Notes under the pieces: generated by a model
The model's input: only the letters and a program-made list of their open reading frames with translations
What the model was told of the DNA's origin: nothing
The model's database searches: none
Made by a program: the position numbers and the translations under genes
In this document: piece by piece, positions 3,933 through 20,330 of the stretch
Numbering within the stretch: position 1 is the first letter of the stretch
Layout of the letters: each line of letters opens with the position of its first letter
Origin: Bacillus subtilis subsp. subtilis str. 168
GTDB lineage: Bacteria; Bacillota; Bacilli; Bacillales; Bacillaceae
Reading direction: 5' to 3'
Assembly: GCF_000009045.1 (NCBI RefSeq)
Contig: NC_000964.3
Coordinates: 3,750,001-3,782,000 of the forward strand
Length of the DNA stretch: 32,000 nucleotides

Positions 3933-5294
3933 TTAAGATGCAGTTTTCATTAATGCAGCAAATCTCACAGCCATTAACAGGCTTGCTCCGCCCGCTATAA
4001 TCATAATGATTCCCATCATATCAAAATGGGCTGCCGTGATTTCTTTACCAAAAAGAATGCCAAGGATCACCGAAGACAAAATCGATCCTAGGTAACGGCA
4101 GGTTTGAAACAGGCCTGAAGTCGTTCCTACCATGTTGGAAGGACTCGTTTCCAGCATCGCTGCCTGAAGCGCGACATTGCCCAGTCCGTAGCCTATACCC
4201 AAGAGCGACAGAATGAGGCCTTTACCGATGGTCTGGACATTGATAAAAAAGATGGTTAAGAGCACGGCTCCAGCCGTCATCAAAAGCGCTCCCGCAAAGA
4301 TCGGCTTGACGACACCAGATCGGTCGATCCATTTGCCGGTTAGAGGTGACACAACGATGCTCATTCCAGACATAAACAGCATAAACAGGCCGCTCGTTTG
4401 AACAGAAAGATGCATTTCATCCTGAAAGTAACTTGGCAAACCAAAAAATAAACAATAGAAGAAAACATTCAATAAAATAAACTGAACATACACGGCTGAC
4501 AGGTTTCGCTGTGTTTTAAACAGACGGACATCAATAAACGGCTTATCCGTTTTCAGCTCGCGCCAGACAAACGCACAGAGCAGAAGCAAGCCAAGCACAC
4601 CTTCAACCGCATGCGGCGACGTGCTGAACGACAGCAAAAAGGATAGAAGGAAAATGATTCCCCCGGCAAATAAAACAATTCCAAGAATATCGAGCTGCCG
4701 AATAATGGTTTTGATTCCTGCCCCTTTTTTCTGATCTTTCGGGAACATATACAGGCCCAATAAGAAGCTGAGGATAATAAACGGCAAATTAACGATAAAG
4801 ATCGCCGGCCAGCCTCCCCATACAATCAAAAACCCGCCGGCTGTCGGCCCCAGCGCCGTCATGGCGGACGCAAAAATAGAGAGTACAGCCAAGGCTGAAG
4901 CTTGGCGCTCATGAATATGATTCCGAATCAAGCCGACACCTGACGGATAAATCGCACTGCTCCCCACCGATTGAAACAGCCGCATGACCAATAATGTCAT
5001 AAACGTCGGCGCAAACGGCGCCCCGATGGCAGAAACCGCAACAAGAATAAGCCCGAATAAAAACAAGCGTTTCCGCCCAATCAAATCACCGAGCTTTCCC
5101 GTTACGGGCTGCGCTACGGCACTCGCCAAGTAAAACGAGGAAATCAGCCAGGAAACCGTTGTAAACGAGAGGTGAAACTCATGCTGGATGCTATGGAGCG
5201 CAAGAGAGATCATAGACGAGTTCAGCGGATTCAGCATTGTTCCCGAAGCCACAGCTGTTAAAAAAACAGCTCGGCTTTTTTTCGATAACATCAT
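3933..5294 (-). CDS. ywoD: MFS transporter, drug:H+ antiporter-like
   Basis: 453-aa highly hydrophobic protein with an MFS motif region (GKLGDLIGRKR). Its start overlaps the ywoC stop by 4 nt. Confidence 0.85.
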   Translation of the reverse strand: MMLSKKSRAVFLTAVASGTMLNPLNSSMISLALHSIQHEFHLSFTTVSWLISSFYLASAVAQPVTGKLGDLIGRKRLFLFGLILVAVSAIGAPFAPTFMTLLVMRLFQSVGSSAIYPSGVGLIRNHIHERQASALAVLSIFASAMTALGPTAGGFLIVWGGWPAIFIVNLPFIILSFLLGLYMFPKDQKKGAGIKTIIRQLDILGIVLFAGGIIFLLSFLLSFSTSPHAVEGVLGLLLLCAFVWRELKTDKPFIDVRLFKTQRNLSAVYVQFILLNVFFYCLFFGLPSYFQDEMHLSVQTSGLFMLFMSGMSIVVSPLTGKWIDRSGVVKPIFAGALLMTAGAVLLTIFFINVQTIGKGLILSLLGIGYGLGNVALQAAMLETSPSNMVGTTSGLFQTCRYLGSILSSVILGILFGKEITAAHFDMMGIIMIIAGGASLLMAVRFAALMKTAS

Positions 5295-5860
5295 TTCACT
5301 TGTTCCAGAAACTCTTCCGTTGTCCGCGATTTACCGATTCTCGGGAAAATAAAGCGCAGTGTGGCTTCATGCTCTTCATCGCTAAATGTGGACATGGCAT
5401 CTGTAATAAAAATCTGCTGATAGCCAAGCTGAAATGCCTCCCGTGCTGTGCTTTCCACCCCGATATTCGTTGCGATGCCGCACAATACAATCGTATCAAT
5501 GCCGCGACGTCTCAGCTGCAAGTCTAAATCTGTGCCAAAAAAAGCACCCCATTGCCGTTTTGTCACAGTATAATCGCCATCCTGCACACCGATTTCCGGA
5601 ACAAATTCGGCCCAGTCCGCCGGCATTTCCCCTGAACCTCCCTGCGCAGGCTCATCCGTTTGCGGCTTCAGGGCGTCCGCTCCATCATGAAAGGCTACAT
5701 TTACAAAGCTGATGAACCCGTTATGTTTCCGAAATTCATCTACGAGCTTTTTCGCGTTCGGGACAACCTGGCCGCTTTGATCAATCGGCACAATTCCCTT
5801 TTGTAAATCAATGATAACCAATGCTGTTTTTTGAAAATCAATGTTGAGTGTATTCATCAT
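5291..5860 (-). CDS. ywoC: Isochorismatase-family (cysteine) hydrolase
   Basis: Start set at the ATG at 5860, preceded by aggagga. The product shows the family signature VLCGIATNIGVESTAR and an N-terminal ALVIIDLQ. The stop is coupled to the ywoD start. Confidence 0.85.
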   Translation of the reverse strand: MMNTLNIDFQKTALVIIDLQKGIVPIDQSGQVVPNAKKLVDEFRKHNGFISFVNVAFHDGADALKPQTDEPAQGGSGEMPADWAEFVPEIGVQDGDYTVTKRQWGAFFGTDLDLQLRRRGIDTIVLCGIATNIGVESTAREAFQLGYQQIFITDAMSTFSDEEHEATLRFIFPRIGKSRTTEEFLEQVK

Positions 5861-5966
5861 ACGTCTCCTCCTGATACTGTTAGTGTTTCTCACATTGCAT
5901 ATTTTACTCTTCACACTGCCTAAGTTCTTTTATGATGCTTGTGAAATTCTCAGAAGGAGCGTTTTC

Positions 5967-6687: not shown

Positions 6688-6738
6688 TGTCAGGAAATCT
6701 TACATGAAAATGTTTTATCATTCTTTTTTCTCTATAAT
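6688..6738 (+). promoter_or_regulatory. nrgAB promoter with TnrA box
   Basis: TGTCAGGAAATCTTACA (6688-6704) fits TGTNA-N7-TNACA exactly. A TATAAT lies at 6733-6738, so the box centre is about 49 nt upstream of the expected start site, the usual position for TnrA activation. Confidence 0.8.
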
Positions 6739-6789: not shown

Positions 6790-8004
6790 ATGCAAATGGG
6801 CGATACAGTTTTTATGTTCTTTTGCGCTTTACTCGTGTGGCTGATGACCCCGGGATTAGCGTTATTTTATGGAGGAATGGTAAAGAGCAAAAATGTGCTG
6901 AGCACTGCCATGCACAGTTTCTCTTCCATTGCCATCGTTTCCATCGTTTGGGTGCTGTTCGGATATACACTTGCCTTCGCACCAGGCAATTCAATCATCG
7001 GCGGGCTGGAGTGGGCAGGCCTCAAAGGGGTCGGATTTGATCCGGGAGATTACAGCGATACCATCCCCCACTCGTTATTTATGATGTTCCAAATGACGTT
7101 CGCCGTTCTGACTACAGCGATTATTTCCGGGGCTTTCGCAGAGCGGATGCGATTCGGCGCTTTTCTTTTATTCTCGGTTTTATGGGCCTCTTTGGTTTAC
7201 ACACCCGTAGCGCACTGGGTATGGGGCGGCGGCTGGATCGGCCAGCTTGGAGCGCTCGATTTCGCTGGCGGCAATGTTGTTCATATTTCCTCCGGGGTGG
7301 CAGGACTTGTTCTTGCCATTGTGCTCGGCAAACGGAAAGACGGTACAGCGTCTTCTCCGCATAACCTCATTTACACCTTCTTAGGAGGAGCTTTGATTTG
7401 GTTCGGCTGGTTCGGCTTTAACGTCGGCAGCGCATTGACCTTAGATGGTGTGGCCATGTACGCGTTCATCAACACAAACACCGCGGCTGCAGCCGGGATC
7501 GCCGGCTGGATCTTAGTAGAATGGATCATTAACAAAAAACCGACAATGCTCGGAGCGGTATCTGGGGCAATCGCCGGGCTTGTCGCCATTACGCCGGCTG
7601 CCGGATTTGTCACACCGTTCGCTTCCATTATTATCGGCATCATCGGCGGAGCTGTTTGTTTCTGGGGAGTATTCTCGCTTAAAAAGAAATTCGGATACGA
7701 CGACGCGCTTGACGCCTTTGGCCTGCACGGGATCGGCGGCACATGGGGCGGAATCGCAACAGGATTATTCGCAACAACCTCTGTTAACTCAGCGGGCGCA
7801 GATGGGTTATTTTACGGTGATGCAAGCTTAATCTGGAAACAAATCGTCGCCATCGCCGCCACTTATGTTTTTGTATTTATTGTCACTTTCGTTATTATTA
7901 AAATTGTAAGCCTCTTCCTTCCCCTTCGCGCAACTGAAGAAGAAGAGTCACTTGGGCTTGACTTAACGATGCACGGGGAAAAAGCATATCAAGATTCTAT
8001 GTGA
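6790..8004 (+). CDS. nrgA: Ammonium transporter (Amt family)
   Basis: 404-aa Amt/AmtB protein (motifs AGGxVVHISSG, FGLHGIGG) with RBS ggagga upstream. Confidence 0.95.
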   Translation: MQMGDTVFMFFCALLVWLMTPGLALFYGGMVKSKNVLSTAMHSFSSIAIVSIVWVLFGYTLAFAPGNSIIGGLEWAGLKGVGFDPGDYSDTIPHSLFMMFQMTFAVLTTAIISGAFAERMRFGAFLLFSVLWASLVYTPVAHWVWGGGWIGQLGALDFAGGNVVHISSGVAGLVLAIVLGKRKDGTASSPHNLIYTFLGGALIWFGWFGFNVGSALTLDGVAMYAFINTNTAAAAGIAGWILVEWIINKKPTMLGAVSGAIAGLVAITPAAGFVTPFASIIIGIIGGAVCFWGVFSLKKKFGYDDALDAFGLHGIGGTWGGIATGLFATTSVNSAGADGLFYGDASLIWKQIVAIAATYVFVFIVTFVIIKIVSLFLPLRATEEEESLGLDLTMHGEKAYQDSM

Positions 8005-9170: not shown

Positions 9171-9591
9171 AATATTTCTCATACATCTCTTGTTTTCTTC
9201 GCTTCGCCAACACATATAAACCATAAAACAACCCAATTCCAACAGCATCGATGAGCACATCCCGGATACAACCATTCCTGCTGAAGAAGAGCTGAAGAAC
9301 TTCTGTGAAAAAAGCAAACGCAAATGAGCCGGCTGCAGCTGATCTTATGCTGCCCCGCTGTTTCCACAGCAAATATGTCAGCACAAAGAAGGAAAACGCG
9401 TGTCCGATTTTTTGAATAAACGCTTCAGGTACAGTAAGCTCAGTAAAATCCATAACTAAAAATTGAGACAGATCAGGGTGCGGCTGAAAATGAAAAGCCA
9501 CCGTTTGCGATACGACCATGCCGCTGAAGCTTTCCGTACAGACAGAAAGCAGGATAAAAAAGATCCAGCCTGCGAGCAATAGGCGGTTCAT
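9169..9591 (-). CDS. ywnJ: VanZ-like membrane protein
   Basis: Start set at the ATG at 9591 after aaaggagg, giving a 140-aa membrane protein. The ORF-track extension to 9702 has no RBS and crosses the spoIIQ terminator. Confidence 0.8.
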   Translation of the reverse strand: MNRLLLAGWIFFILLSVCTESFSGMVVSQTVAFHFQPHPDLSQFLVMDFTELTVPEAFIQKIGHAFSFFVLTYLLWKQRGSIRSAAAGSFAFAFFTEVLQLFFSRNGCIRDVLIDAVGIGLFYGLYVLAKRRKQEMYEKY

Positions 9592-16713: not shown

Positions 16714-18423
16714 TCAAAATAAGAAATATCTTTGTCCAAGTGGGACATAATCGACAGGCTGGCAAGACAATTCCTCCCCGTCAGCAAAGACCTGATAGGT
16801 TTTTGGATCAATCTCAATCTTCGGCAAAGCCGAATTCAGCTTCATATCCAGCTTGCTCAGCTTTCTGATATTTTTGACTGGAGAAATCCTTTTTTCCAGC
16901 CCTAAGCTTTCCGCCACACCACGCTCTATGCTTGCCTGAGACATAAATGTAATCGAGGTTGAGCGGTTGGCTTTTCCGTAAGACGCATACATTTGGCGCA
17001 TGAAAACCGGTTCAGGAGTCGGGATGGACGCGTTCGGATCTCCCATTTGCGCACGTGCAATCATGCCGCCCTTTAAGACCAGTTCCGGTTTCACGCCGAA
17101 AAATACCGGGTCCCACAGAACGAGATCAGCAAGCTTCCCTTTTTCCACCGAGCCGACCTCATGGCTGAGCCCGTGCGTAATTGCCGGATTAATCGTGTAT
17201 TTGGCAATGTACCGTTTTGCGCGCACATTGTCATTCCCGTTTTCACCGGCAAGAGCGCCGCGCTGTTTTTTCATTTTATCGGCTACCTGCCATGTTCGGA
17301 TGATCACTTCACCGACCCGCCCCATCGCTTGGGAATCCGATGATGTCATGCTGATCGCACCTATATCATGGAGAATATCCTCCGCGGCAATCGTCGCCGC
17401 CCTGATTCTGGAATGGCTGAATGCCACATCTTCAGGCACTTTCGCATCTAAATGGTGGCAGACCATCATCATGTCAAGATGCTCATCCATCGTATTAACG
17501 GTATAAGGAATGGTTGGCGTTGTAGATGACGGCAGAATGTTCGCGTAAGAGGCGAGCTTCATAATATCCGGAGCGTGACCGCCGCCTGCCCCTTCAATGT
17601 GATAAGTATGAATAACCCGGTCCCCGATCGCGTCGAGCGTGTTTTCCAAAAAGCCCGCTTCGTTAATCGTATCGGTATGGATGGCAACTTGAATATCAGC
17701 CTCGTCCACGACTTCCATACACGTTTTAATGGCGCTTGGCGTCGTTCCCCAGTCTTCATGGAGCTTAAGACCGATGGCGCCTGCTTCCACCTGCTCGATC
17801 AGCGGCGCTTTATCGGATGCATTCCCTTTTCCTAAGAAGCCGACATTGATCGGAAACTCCTCGGCCGCTTCCAGCATCCTCGCCATATACCACGCCCCGG
17901 ACGTACATGTTGTCGCTTTGCTTCCTGTAGCGGGTCCTGTTCCGCCTCCCAAAAGGGTCGTCACACCTGAAGAAAGCGCAACTTCCATCTGCTGAGGACA
18001 AATAAAATGAATGTGCGTGTCCACTCCCCCGGCTGTTAAAATTTTGCCTTCACCGGAAATCACCTCTGTCCCCGCTCCGATGACCATGTGCGGATCGACT
18101 CCATCCATGATATCAGGATTTCCGCTTTTTCCGACACCGACAATCCGGCCGTCTTTCACACCGACATCCGCTTTGACAATGCCTGTGTAATCCAATAGCA
18201 CGACGTTGGTGATAACCAAATCCAAAGCGCCGTCCTTCCCTGTGATTCTGCCGTTTTGGCCCATGCCGTCTCGGATAGTTTTTCCGCCGCCAAAGATCAT
18301 TTCTTCACCGTATACTGTGAAATCCTTTTCGACTTCGATCCATAAATCCGTGTCGCCCAATCTGATTTTATCGCCCGTTGTCGGGCCAAACAGTTCCGCA
18401 TATTCCTCCCGTGACATTTTCAT
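16714..18423 (-). CDS. ureC: Urease alpha (catalytic) subunit
   Basis: 569 aa with urease signatures ([30 protein letters not shown]). The start overlaps the ureB stop by 4 nt. Confidence 0.97.
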
Positions 18424-18794
18424 CGGATTACACCCTCCATCCAGCCGGCTTGTTTTAAGTTGGCCAACGTTTTTTCTTTGCCGCGTTCATCGATAAACGT
18501 GTCGGCCATTCCGTTCAGCCCTCTAATTGTCTTGCGTCCTCTGATTTCCACTAGTGAGACCGTTTTCTGCTCTCCCGGCTCAAAACGGACCGACGTGCCT
18601 GATGGAACATCAAGACGCATGCCGATCGCCAGCTCACGGTCAAATAATAAAGCCCCGTTGGCCTCCGCAAAATGAAAATGCGAACCGACTTGAATGGAGC
18701 GTGATCCGGTGTTTTTTACCGTTACCTCCCGTATCTCACGGCCTTCATTAATCGTAATGGTTCCCTCAGCAATTTGAAATGCTCCCGGCTTCAT
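18420..18794 (-). CDS. ureB: Urease beta subunit
   Basis: 124-aa UreB (MKPGAF...[10 protein letters not shown]), coupled to both ureA and ureC by 4-nt overlaps. Confidence 0.95.
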
Positions 18795-19108
18795 GACTTC
18801 ACCTCCGCAGAAATTGGCTGATGTACCGTAACAAGCTTTACACCATCCGGAAATGTGGCCTCCACCTGAATGCTGTCCAGCATCTCAGGCACACCCTCCA
18901 TCACATCTTTTTCCGTTAATACATGGCGGCCGGCTTCCATCAGCTCTGCTACTCCCTTCCCATCACGTGCGCCTTCCATAATAAAGCAGGTGATATAAGC
19001 AGCAGCCTCAGGATAGTTCAGCAGAACGCCCCGCGCCTTTCGCTGTTTGGCTAATTCCCCCGCTGCAAAAATGAGCAATTTCTCTTGTTCAACTGGTGTC
19101 AGTTTCAT
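18791..19108 (-). CDS. ureA: Urease gamma subunit
   Basis: The ATG at 19108 follows aaggagga and gives [14 protein letters not shown]..., 105 aa. The ORF-track start at 19132 is rejected. Confidence 0.93.
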
Positions 19109-19349
19109 CTGTAGTCCTCCTTCTTTTGTCATATAAAGCAGATGCGGCTACTACGAATTTGCGGAACAGTCAGGCGGGACATCACCTCCCTTTCTTCGAG
19201 AATGGGGGTCATACGGTAAGATGCCTTTCAAAGCGGCATGCCGTTTCTTCATCAGCCTTGCCATGGTCAACAACCGTTCCCCTGTCGATCACGGAAAGAT
19301 CAGATTAACGCGTTTTCCAGACTGCGCTCGACTAAGATAACAAATGTCT

Positions 19350-19364
19350 TTTTTTCTGGAAATT
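19350..19364 (-). promoter_or_regulatory. Candidate CodY box near ure P2
   Basis: On the minus strand AATTTCCAGAAAAAA differs from the consensus AATTTTCWGAAAATT at 3 positions. Confidence 0.35.
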
Positions 19365-19386
19365 TCTATAATAACTTGTCTGACTA

Positions 19387-19414
19387 GTTCGACAATTAAA
19401 ATCTGAATTCCTTC
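19387..19414 (-). promoter_or_regulatory. sigmaH-type promoter (ure P2)
   Basis: On the minus strand GAAGGAATT, then 12 nt, then GTCGAAC, against RNAGGAWWW-N11/12-RNNGAAT. The implied start is about 270 nt upstream of ureA, as I recall for the published P2. Confidence 0.55.
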
Positions 19415-19924
19415 CAATTGTTTATTAAGTAAAATATTTTTCAGATTTACCATCAGCGCTCTGGTGATTGCAAGCTGCTGCTGTTGACCGCCTTTTCGTT
19501 TTGAACAAACGTTTGATTAAAACAAATAGCCCCCTCTGTTTAGCCGGAGTCGGCCTAATACAGCGACAATCTGCCCCGGGCGAAGCTAAGGCTGTGCAAA
19601 ACCATCGATTGATCATAACCAGACGTTACATTCCTGATGGCAGCCCGTTGTTTTGCTCCGCAACCGGAAGCATGGCATGGAGGCCAGTCTGAGGCGCCGA
19701 CCTCCACGATACCGAGAACCCGACTATTGCCATTAACTCCGCATCATGGACGGTCACTTCGCTGATCGCCACCGTTCCTCTTAATGAGTGAAGAATTCCG
19801 GCCTTCACTGAATCCCCGCTTGTGTCGATATCAACTGTTTTCTCGCACTCCCGTGGCTTCCGACACTTTCTTCGGTGCAGTACATTCCGTCATCAAAACC
19901 CCTTTGTTTGATTTCTTCAAATGA

Positions 19925-19941
19925 TGTTATAAAAGTTTACA
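19925..19941. promoter_or_regulatory. GlnR/TnrA box just downstream of the ure P3 start site
   Basis: TGTTATAAAAGTTTACA is an exact fit to TGTNA-N7-TNACA, centred at about +14. Confidence 0.65.
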
Positions 19942-19953
19942 ACTTATGTCATC

Positions 19954-19981
19954 ATTATATAGAAGAGGCCTATTAATTCAA
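19954..19981 (-). promoter_or_regulatory. sigmaA promoter (ure P3)
   Basis: On the minus strand TTGAAT, then 16 nt, then TATAAT. The implied start near 19947 is about 839 nt upstream of the ureA ATG, matching my recollection of the mapped P3. Confidence 0.7.
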
Positions 19982-20029
19982 AGAATATTTAAAAAATTTA
20001 GTTACCTTGACCAAATCAGCTTCTTTTTT

Positions 20030-20046
20030 TGTTATATTTATTCACA
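20030..20046. promoter_or_regulatory. Upstream GlnR/TnrA box of ure P3
   Basis: On the minus strand TGTGAATAAATATAACA is an exact fit to TGTNA-N7-TNACA, centred about 91 nt upstream of the P3 start. Confidence 0.6.
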
Positions 20047-20059
20047 TCAGAAAAAGCGA

Positions 20060-20089
20060 AAAAAAAGACAAGAAACATTTCGTTTCCTG
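20060..20089 (-). terminator. Rho-independent terminator of csbD
   Basis: On the minus strand the stem caggaaac/gtttcttg (one G-U pair) is followed by tctttttttt. Confidence 0.65.
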
Positions 20090-20103
20090 CCTCTTCCGTA
20101 CGA

Positions 20104-20292
20104 TTAATCTTTATCTGAAAATTTATCCTTGGCTTTCCCGATATCCTTTTGGATTTCGCCTTTTGCCTTATCTTTTTTGCCTTCAGCCTGCATGTCCGTT
20201 CTGTCAGCCATATCTCCGACTTTATCCTTCACTTCTCCTTTGGCTTTATTGAAGCCGCCCTTCATTTTGTCTTTTACACTATCGTTACCCAT
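20104..20292 (-). CDS. csbD: General stress protein CsbD
   Basis: 62-aa Lys/Asp-rich CsbD-family protein (KGEVKDKVGD...KGEIQKDIGKAKDK). RBS gagaggggag. Confidence 0.9.
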   Translation of the reverse strand: MGNDSVKDKMKGGFNKAKGEVKDKVGDMADRTDMQAEGKKDKAKGEIQKDIGKAKDKFSDKD

Positions 20293-20330
20293 GTTAATTC
20301 TCCCCTCTCAATTATGTGTGTACTTGTTAA

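Follow-up and report, generated by a model that had tools for sequence, protein, structure and literature searches.

The high-affinity urea ATP-binding cassette (ABC) transporter UrtABCDE (NCBIfam models TIGR03407-TIGR03411) is encoded intact in sister species of Bacillus subtilis. Besides the P1 and P2 promoters reported in the literature, the B. subtilis urease genes ureABC have a promoter, P3, with a long leader (Wray et al. 1997 and Brandenburg et al. 2002, both as cited in PMC4475385). The literature found calls this leader untranslated or names it the 'ywzF' region, without mention of a decayed transporter origin. The present study concerns this leader in a 32,000-nucleotide (nt) stretch of B. 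subtilis subsp. subtilis str. 168 (NC_000964.3, positions 3,750,001 to 3,782,000), referred to below as the window, within which all coordinates are given. As far as P3 is described in PMC4475385, its position, sigma-A hexamers and two TnrA-type boxes are all present in the window. Comparison of this sequence with that of relatives makes us highly confident that the ~840-nt leader between P3 and ureABC is what erosion has left of a urtABCDE operon. The relic is orthologous to the intact transporter DNA of the sister species, with which it has its flanks, promoter, two TnrA boxes and urtE-ureA spacer in common, but it is without urtB, urtC, urtD, the urtA start, the signal peptide and urtA codons 144-418 and, judged on its sequence, cannot encode a transporter.

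A preliminary description of this DNA, based on the letters without database searches, had read the leader as the fossil of two LivG/LivF (UrtD/UrtE)-type ABC ATPase genes. It cited four peptide pieces on the minus strand (i, 19698-19778; ii, 19553-19585; iii, 19424-19492; iv, 19209-19289) and a 20-codon open reading frame (ORF) at 19893-19831, all of which are present as quoted and in the stated frames. Its impression of a GC-richer central leader was also borne out (GC content 0.50-0.56 across 19450-19850 vs 0.25-0.33 in the promoter DNA at 19850-20100), and the ORF map of the window agrees with it that no long intact ORF lies between P3 and ureA. Shuffled controls, profile searches and a survey of syntenic relatives, all of which it had proposed, support a urea-transporter origin with a different gene content.

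With intact B. stercoris proteins as queries, tblastn against the leader returned one match to UrtA (70.1 bits) and three to UrtE (54.3, 70.9 and 53.5 bits), whereas the best match per shuffled leader averaged 18.8 bits and reached a maximum of 25.8 bits in 200 shuffles. UrtB, UrtC and UrtD gave best tblastn scores of 16-20 bits in the leader, inside the shuffle range. UrtA and UrtE were likewise the top NCBIfam families for the leader fragments. The ORF containing piece (iii) matched the UrtE model TIGR03410 at E=1.8e-12 and the LivF model at E=1.4e-4 (47.2 vs 21.4 bits), and a frame-stitched pseudo-UrtE matched TIGR03410 at E=1.4e-22 with 80.3 bits, compared with 46 bits for the next family and 36.9 bits (E=2.7e-9) for LivF. 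LivG and LivF belong to the same ABC ATPase subfamily as UrtD and UrtE, and UrtE was ahead by >25 bits for the piece (iii) ORF and by >40 bits for the stitched sequence. Intact B. stercoris UrtE itself scores above the UrtE cut-off (304.5 vs 285.8) and below that of LivF (156.7 vs 441). NCBIfam was far more informative than Pfam, which was nearly blind to single fragments: ABC_tran was reached by the stitched sequence only (25.1 bits) and Peripla_BP_5 stayed below its cut-off.

The relic occupies window positions 19209-19896 on the minus strand, in the interval between csbD and ureA, and retains ~690 of the 4696 nt of the urt operon (~15%). Aligned to intact operons by blastn and global alignment, with deletion coordinates relative to B. 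stercoris, the leader is colinear with them as ordered blocks of 80-98% DNA identity. These blocks run from the promoter up to the urtA ribosome-binding site, through pieces of urtA, across a ~3.57-kb deletion and through pieces of urtE to the unchanged spacer, and the csbD and ureA flanks are those of B. stercoris, B. tequilensis and B. halotolerans. The features of the locus, in window coordinates, are as follows.

19643-19896, minus strand: urtA remnant, codons ~20-76, 82-89, 94-105 and 132-143 of 418 (DNA alignment, tblastn, TIGR03407)
19831-19893, minus strand: 20-codon relic ORF whose ATG is urtA Met21, at the end of the signal peptide (alignment to intact urtA)
19626-19808, minus strand: 60-amino-acid (aa) ORF, a frame-restricted urtA piece continuing into urtE DNA (ORF map, public records)
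19642-19643, minus strand: breakpoint at which urtA codon 143 meets urtE codon 2 across the ~3572-nt deletion, marked by TGC microhomology (alignment)
19209-19642, minus strand: urtE remnant, codons 2-35, 51-71 and ~137-233 of 233 (alignment, tblastn, TIGR03410)
19289-19453, minus strand: 54-aa ORF, a UrtE fragment that begins past the signature motif and extends across the mutated Walker B region (ORF map, public records)
19109-19208, minus strand: original urtE-ureA intergenic spacer with the ureA ribosome-binding site (89% identity to the B. stercoris spacer)
16714-19108, minus strand: ureABC, the probable surviving distal genes of a former eight-gene operon (ORF map)
19981-19954, minus strand: ure P3, putatively the former urtA promoter, sigma-A type TTGAAT-16-TATAAT (promoter hexamers)
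19925-19941, strand not assigned: downstream TnrA/GlnR box, overlapping the transcription start region (exact pattern match; predicted site)
20030-20046, strand not assigned: upstream TnrA/GlnR box TGTNAN7TNACA (exact pattern match; predicted site)
20061-20097, minus strand: csbD intrinsic terminator, taken as the upstream boundary of the unit (terminator scan)

The urtA remnant is 84-94% identical at the DNA level to urtA of B. stercoris, B. tequilensis and B. halotolerans. Loss of a single nt at codon 34, at codon 38 and possibly at codon 85 has shifted its frame, and larger internal deletions of roughly 15-18 nt and 80 nt are also present; the fragment reaches 33.5 bits against a cut-off of 492.75 for the full-length protein (~418 aa, TIGR03407). 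The native start codon and the core of the signal peptide are gone, either in a 63-nt gap or in gaps of 16-24 nt and 39 nt, the parse being ambiguous. What follows is the 20-codon ORF, which retains the lipobox Cys (UrtA context ...VLMTGC..., compare B. tequilensis UrtA ...VLMTGCTGPKKVSEASG), terminates through the 1-nt deletion at urtA codon 34 and is preceded by a ribosome-binding site left over from the urtA 5' sequence. The 3572-nt deletion then takes the rest of urtA together with the whole of urtB, urtC and urtD, including both permease genes, and leaves the junction GGGCTGCCATCAGGAATG.

Beyond this junction, the urtE remnant has lost 7 nt, 46-47 nt at Walker A, ~197-202 nt in the Q-loop region and, further on, 2 nt and 8 nt. 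The codons of Walker A (GRNGVGKST) fall inside the 46-47-nt deletion and the codons for NGVGKSTLLKTI(I/V)GL are gone. The signature GGQQQQLAI is kept, Walker B has changed from LLDEP to LLNKQ (D159N, E160K), the H-loop carries H193R, and several frameshifts interrupt the gene, a combination unlike that of a functional UrtE. The true UrtE N-terminus in the leader consists of LRPGQIVAVLG, quoted as piece (ii), plus an upstream 16-residue piece in the third frame that the preliminary description missed. Its reading of 'ADSG-stop-T' as a Walker A with the Lys codon turned into TAA does not hold, as the motif is deleted and the TAA stems from out-of-frame LPAKQ codons. It was right to invoke internal deletions for the short distance from Walker A to the signature, which is short because of the 46-nt and ~200-nt deletions mapped here.

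Relatives were surveyed by a UreA-seeded scan with one genome per species, which placed several members of the B. subtilis group among the matches listed. Transporter genes between csbD and ureA, as anticipated for relatives, were found intact: in B. tequilensis (L001) and B. halotolerans (L002) the interval is filled by five ORFs of 418, 300, 356, ~250 and 233 aa. A UrtA search returned full-length proteins with 91-96% identity annotated as urea ABC transporter substrate-binding protein, from B. spizizenii, B. stercoris, B. inaquosorum, B. mojavensis, B. halotolerans and others. The window has the minus-strand order fdhD, moaA, rapB, ywmF, csbD, a gap of ~1 kb, ureA, ureB, ureC, ywnA and ywnB, with ureA at 18794-19108 (ATG at 19108) and a UreC that is residue-for-residue URE1_BACSU (UniProt), which places the window in B. 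subtilis sensu stricto. Contig L081 and the B. stercoris contigs L083 and L084 read spoIID...fdhD-moaA-rapB-ywmF-csbD-urtABCDE-ureABC-ywnA-ywnB, which is the window order plus five genes, and all five B. stercoris Urt proteins score above their curated NCBIfam cut-offs. The order urtABCDE-ureA is also present in the more distant Aquibacillus, and the context upstream of ureA is different in genomes of the licheniformis clade.

Decayed loci were found in two further species. B. atrophaeus (L003, 9380-9851) has a P3-like promoter, TTGAAT...TATAAT, at 9380 and, 20 nt later, frame-shifted urtE codons 11-160, with no urtA left and the urtE 3' end gone, while in B. nakamurai (L004, 9792-9987) a ~30-nt urtE trace is all that lies between the csbD-side sequence and ureA. 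The locus and the outcome, urease without the transporter, are the same as in the window, as is the P3-like promoter in B. atrophaeus, but the breakpoints differ, and decay therefore proceeded separately in these lineages.

Several further observations concern the relatives. Contig L081 (GCA_046588065.1), labelled Bacillus subtilis, has an intact urtABCDE, and its ureC is just 93.6% identical to that of the window, compared with 94.5% for B. stercoris; it was therefore not counted as B. subtilis sensu stricto, and its species label is probably wrong or it represents a separate lineage. In B. glycinifermentans (L006, 9817-9897) a ~80-nt match to the P3 region stands directly 5' of ureA in an otherwise different gene context. 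In Thalassorhabdus alkalitolerans (L007, 5100-9541) the urt operon adjoins ureA on the opposite strand (divergent), so that the linkage of urt and ure is kept even where co-transcription is impossible. In species with an intact urt operon, ureC is followed directly by ywnA, encoding an Rrf2 regulator, as it is in the window (12481-14725 in L084 and L081; 16178-18423 in the window); ureEFGD are thus missing in these species too, and the lack of accessory genes is common to the group rather than having arisen with the loss of urt.

For the substitution pattern, sites were taken at which four intact species have one base in common and the window has another. The 34 window-specific substitutions, of which 25 are nonsynonymous and 9 synonymous, show an even spread across the three codon positions (10/14/10), whereas differences between the intact species themselves at these sites are concentrated at third positions (20/6/70; chi-square vs uniform p=4e-16; contingency between the two spreads p=7e-7). 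Such an even spread is the signature of a dead gene, and relaxed selection is also reflected in strain-specific insertions and deletions. Three further B. subtilis strains, retrieved via variants of the relic ORFs and with ureC 97-99% identical to the window, all have the 63-nt, ~3.57-kb and ~200-nt deletions and their junctions in common with it. These three strains still hold ATGGAGG (7 nt), TC (2 nt), TGCTGACT (8 nt) and a 33-nt part of the Walker A region, already damaged, all of which the window has lost. Erosion is therefore stepwise and continuing. Within the species, identity is 96.6-96.7% for the relic, with an additional 56-58 gap columns, compared with 98.6-98.7% for the promoter and 97.2-98.6% for ureC.

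P3 places the start of transcription ~839 nt 5' of the ureA ATG, in agreement with the distance quoted in PMC4475385. In B. stercoris the same two hexamers (L084, 6920-6947) precede the urtA ATG by 54 nt, and the hexamers and both TnrA-type boxes are conserved 5' of intact urtA in B. tequilensis, B. halotolerans and B. stercoris. Exact TGTNAN7TNACA boxes number four in the whole window compared with 0.5 expected. At the sequence level P3 has both the hexamers and the boxes of a TnrA/GlnR-regulated sigma-A promoter, and PMC4475385, which cites two predicted TnrA sites for ure P3, is the source taken here for TnrA binding and regulation at this promoter. The csbD terminator hairpin also stands 5' of the promoter in B. 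stercoris (L084, 6800-6836), and the terminator scan detected no terminator-like hairpin between urtE and ureA in either the intact (B. stercoris) or the decayed (window) locus. In one B. subtilis strain (L087, ~2770-2790, corresponding to window ~20062-20071) the csbD terminator is missing 10 nt in its T-tract and the downstream stem, a short way 5' of the distal TnrA box. Together with the intact urtABCDE of relatives, the conserved promoter and boxes strongly support the earlier suggestion of a past in which P3 transcribed a urt-like urea importer along with urease.

Based on these comparisons, we propose that the ancestor of the B. subtilis group had P3, with two TnrA/GlnR boxes, ~54 nt 5' of urtA. 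On the simplest reading, this promoter would have transcribed urtABCDE-ureABC as one eight-gene unit for urea uptake and hydrolysis. In the lineage of B. subtilis sensu stricto, a ~3.57-kb deletion joined urtA codon 143 to urtE codon 2, and others took the urtA start with its signal peptide and ~200 nt within urtE. The remaining ~690 nt then drifted neutrally, with small strain-specific deletions still shrinking the relic. Today the relic would merely be transcribed as the 5' leader of the P3-ureABC mRNA, and its short ORFs, including those of 60 and 54 aa, would be accidental frames of the wreck. The ~840 nt between P3 and ureA would thus reflect the origin of P3 as the promoter of a urea importer since lost.

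Some points weigh against this account. The breakpoints of several small deletions are ambiguous and are parsed differently by different alignments. Co-transcription from P3 in the intact species and inertness of the relic in B. subtilis are features that we infer from sequence. The relic is also of about equal length in 4/4 B. subtilis strains, and the leader RNA folds slightly better than its shuffles (z=-1.9, from 20 shuffles only), both of which are compatible with a secondary regulatory use.

Among the alternatives, the original proposal of two consecutive ATPase genes of the LivG/LivF or UrtD/UrtE type, both with a degenerate Walker A, now appears very improbable. Pieces (ii)-(iv) are truly derived from an ATPase gene, with (iii) covering the signature region and (iv) the C-terminus as proposed, although the gene is urtE and not of the LivF type; piece (i) and the region after piece (ii) do superficially resemble a beta-strand followed by a P-loop. 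Piece (i), however, matches positions 1-28 of the UrtA model TIGR03407 at E=2e-8 and belongs to a 70-bit alignment with urtA codons 38-143, with 88-90% DNA identity to urtA. For UrtD the best scores are 15.8-20 bits, which is noise, the 20-bit match sits on the UrtE signature region, and the whole of urtD falls in the 3572-nt deletion. The profile searches thus confirmed similarity to ABC ATPases, specifically UrtE, and gave nothing for UrtD, and the UrtA model match, the tblastn scores and the deletion map together refute a UrtD-UrtE pair: there is one ATPase remnant, and the other piece is UrtA. Least probable of all is a history of gain, in which the short locus of B. subtilis is ancestral and urtABCDE entered the sister species as an insertion. 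The presence of urt is patchy across the group among the matches listed, as such a history would allow, but the window holds frame-shifted and internally deleted pieces of both operon ends in the correct order and orientation. With decayed halves of the operon in place, an insertion-only history fails, and this genome must once have had the operon. The urt pieces in the window moreover evolve neutrally, B. atrophaeus has remnants with different breakpoints, and the urtABCDE-ureA arrangement extends to more distant Bacillaceae. The deletion map, neutral substitutions and B. atrophaeus remnant effectively refute gain by insertion.

More serious, though still unlikely, is co-option of the relic, in which a regulatory or coding role now belongs to the long leader or to a small ORF within it (that of 20 codons with the lipobox, the 60-aa YwzF-like ORF or the 54-aa ORF), which would explain why ~700 nt have been kept. 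All four B. subtilis strains examined have the relic, its ORFs are annotated in hundreds of genomes, TnrA binding has been detected at the 'ywzF promoter region' (PMC4475385), and to the weak folding signal can be added a CodY-box-like site with three mismatches at 19350-19364. Against this, substitutions are evenly spread over codon positions, strain-specific insertions and deletions alter the lengths of the relic ORFs, the relic is less conserved within the species than the promoter and slightly less than ureC, and B. nakamurai manages with almost no relic. A riboswitch, T-box or similar cis-regulatory RNA is not indicated either, as an Rfam scan of 18900-20300 gave no match at E<=1. CodY-like matches are not enriched (seven in the window vs 4.4 expected), and the one three-mismatch site in the relic and another near the P3 -35 element were not treated as evidence. 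Given the missing Rfam match, the marginal folding and the absence of CodY enrichment, the relic is therefore regarded as probably inert passenger sequence. An extended form of co-option, to which we give similarly little credence, would have the transcribed wreck serve as a leader for post-initiation control of urease and would have repeated urt decay with urease kept reflect selection against high-affinity urea import. Candidate means of control would be a roadblock by CodY or another protein, RNase targeting, or translation of the lipobox peptide or YwzF-like ORF coupled to mRNA stability, and the selection would act in the urease systems without accessory genes of the B. subtilis group.

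The decayed operon also bears on existing annotation. Contrary to the statement in the preliminary description that no gene is annotated here, two relic ORFs are in public records: the one of 60 aa (19626-19808) is deposited as 'transporter substrate-binding protein', the one of 54 aa (19289-19453) as 'hypothetical protein', and one source names a 52-aa member of the latter's 90%-identity cluster 'ABC-type branched-subunit amino acid transport system ATPase component'. The lengths of these ORFs differ by strain, being 60, 70 and 87 aa on the urtA side and 40, 41, 52 and 54 aa on the urtE side. A gene ywzF, with a promoter region overlapping ure P3, is mentioned in PMC4475385, the only relevant mention that a literature search found, and from that paper the 60-aa ORF is probably ywzF. 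Among the papers covered by full-text searches, which did not extend to the original P3 papers (1997, 2002), none traces the leader to a decayed urt operon or sets B. subtilis apart from its sister species in this respect. In a study of ureolysis engineering in B. subtilis, UrtABCDE is discussed only as a system of other bacteria, and adding a urea transporter raised ureolytic activity in the engineered B. subtilis (PMC8600894).

The two remaining exact TnrA-type boxes of the window lie outside the urease locus. The box TGTCAGGAAATCTTACA at 6688-6704 stands ~90 nt 5' of a 404-aa ORF (6790-8004, plus strand) that passes the NCBIfam ammonium-transporter model TIGR00836 with 486 bits, and is presumably the known TnrA-activated amtB/nrgA promoter, so that the window would contain a second nitrogen-regulated unit. 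The other, at 5878-5894, lies inside the 5' end of an ORF (5291-5914, minus strand) encoding a 207-aa isochorismatase-like hydrolase (NF008517, 195.6 bits vs a cut-off of 195), and may be part of a divergent or internal promoter.

The feature described here is real and statistically unambiguous: it is a pseudogene relic of a known operon and is mechanistically not new. It offers a historical account of an oddity in a textbook nitrogen-regulated operon, namely the location of P3 ~840 nt from ureA, and the strain series provides a small, clean case of stepwise pseudogene erosion within a transcribed leader. The ywzF-like 60-aa ORF and the 54-aa ORF are pseudogene fragments, and their annotation needs re-labelling. 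For the biology of the group, the relic leads to the prediction that B. subtilis sensu stricto would lack high-affinity urea uptake and that B. stercoris, B. spizizenii, B. inaquosorum, B. tequilensis, B. mojavensis and B. halotolerans would possess it, a difference that would be relevant to the engineering of ureolysis in B. subtilis (PMC8600894).

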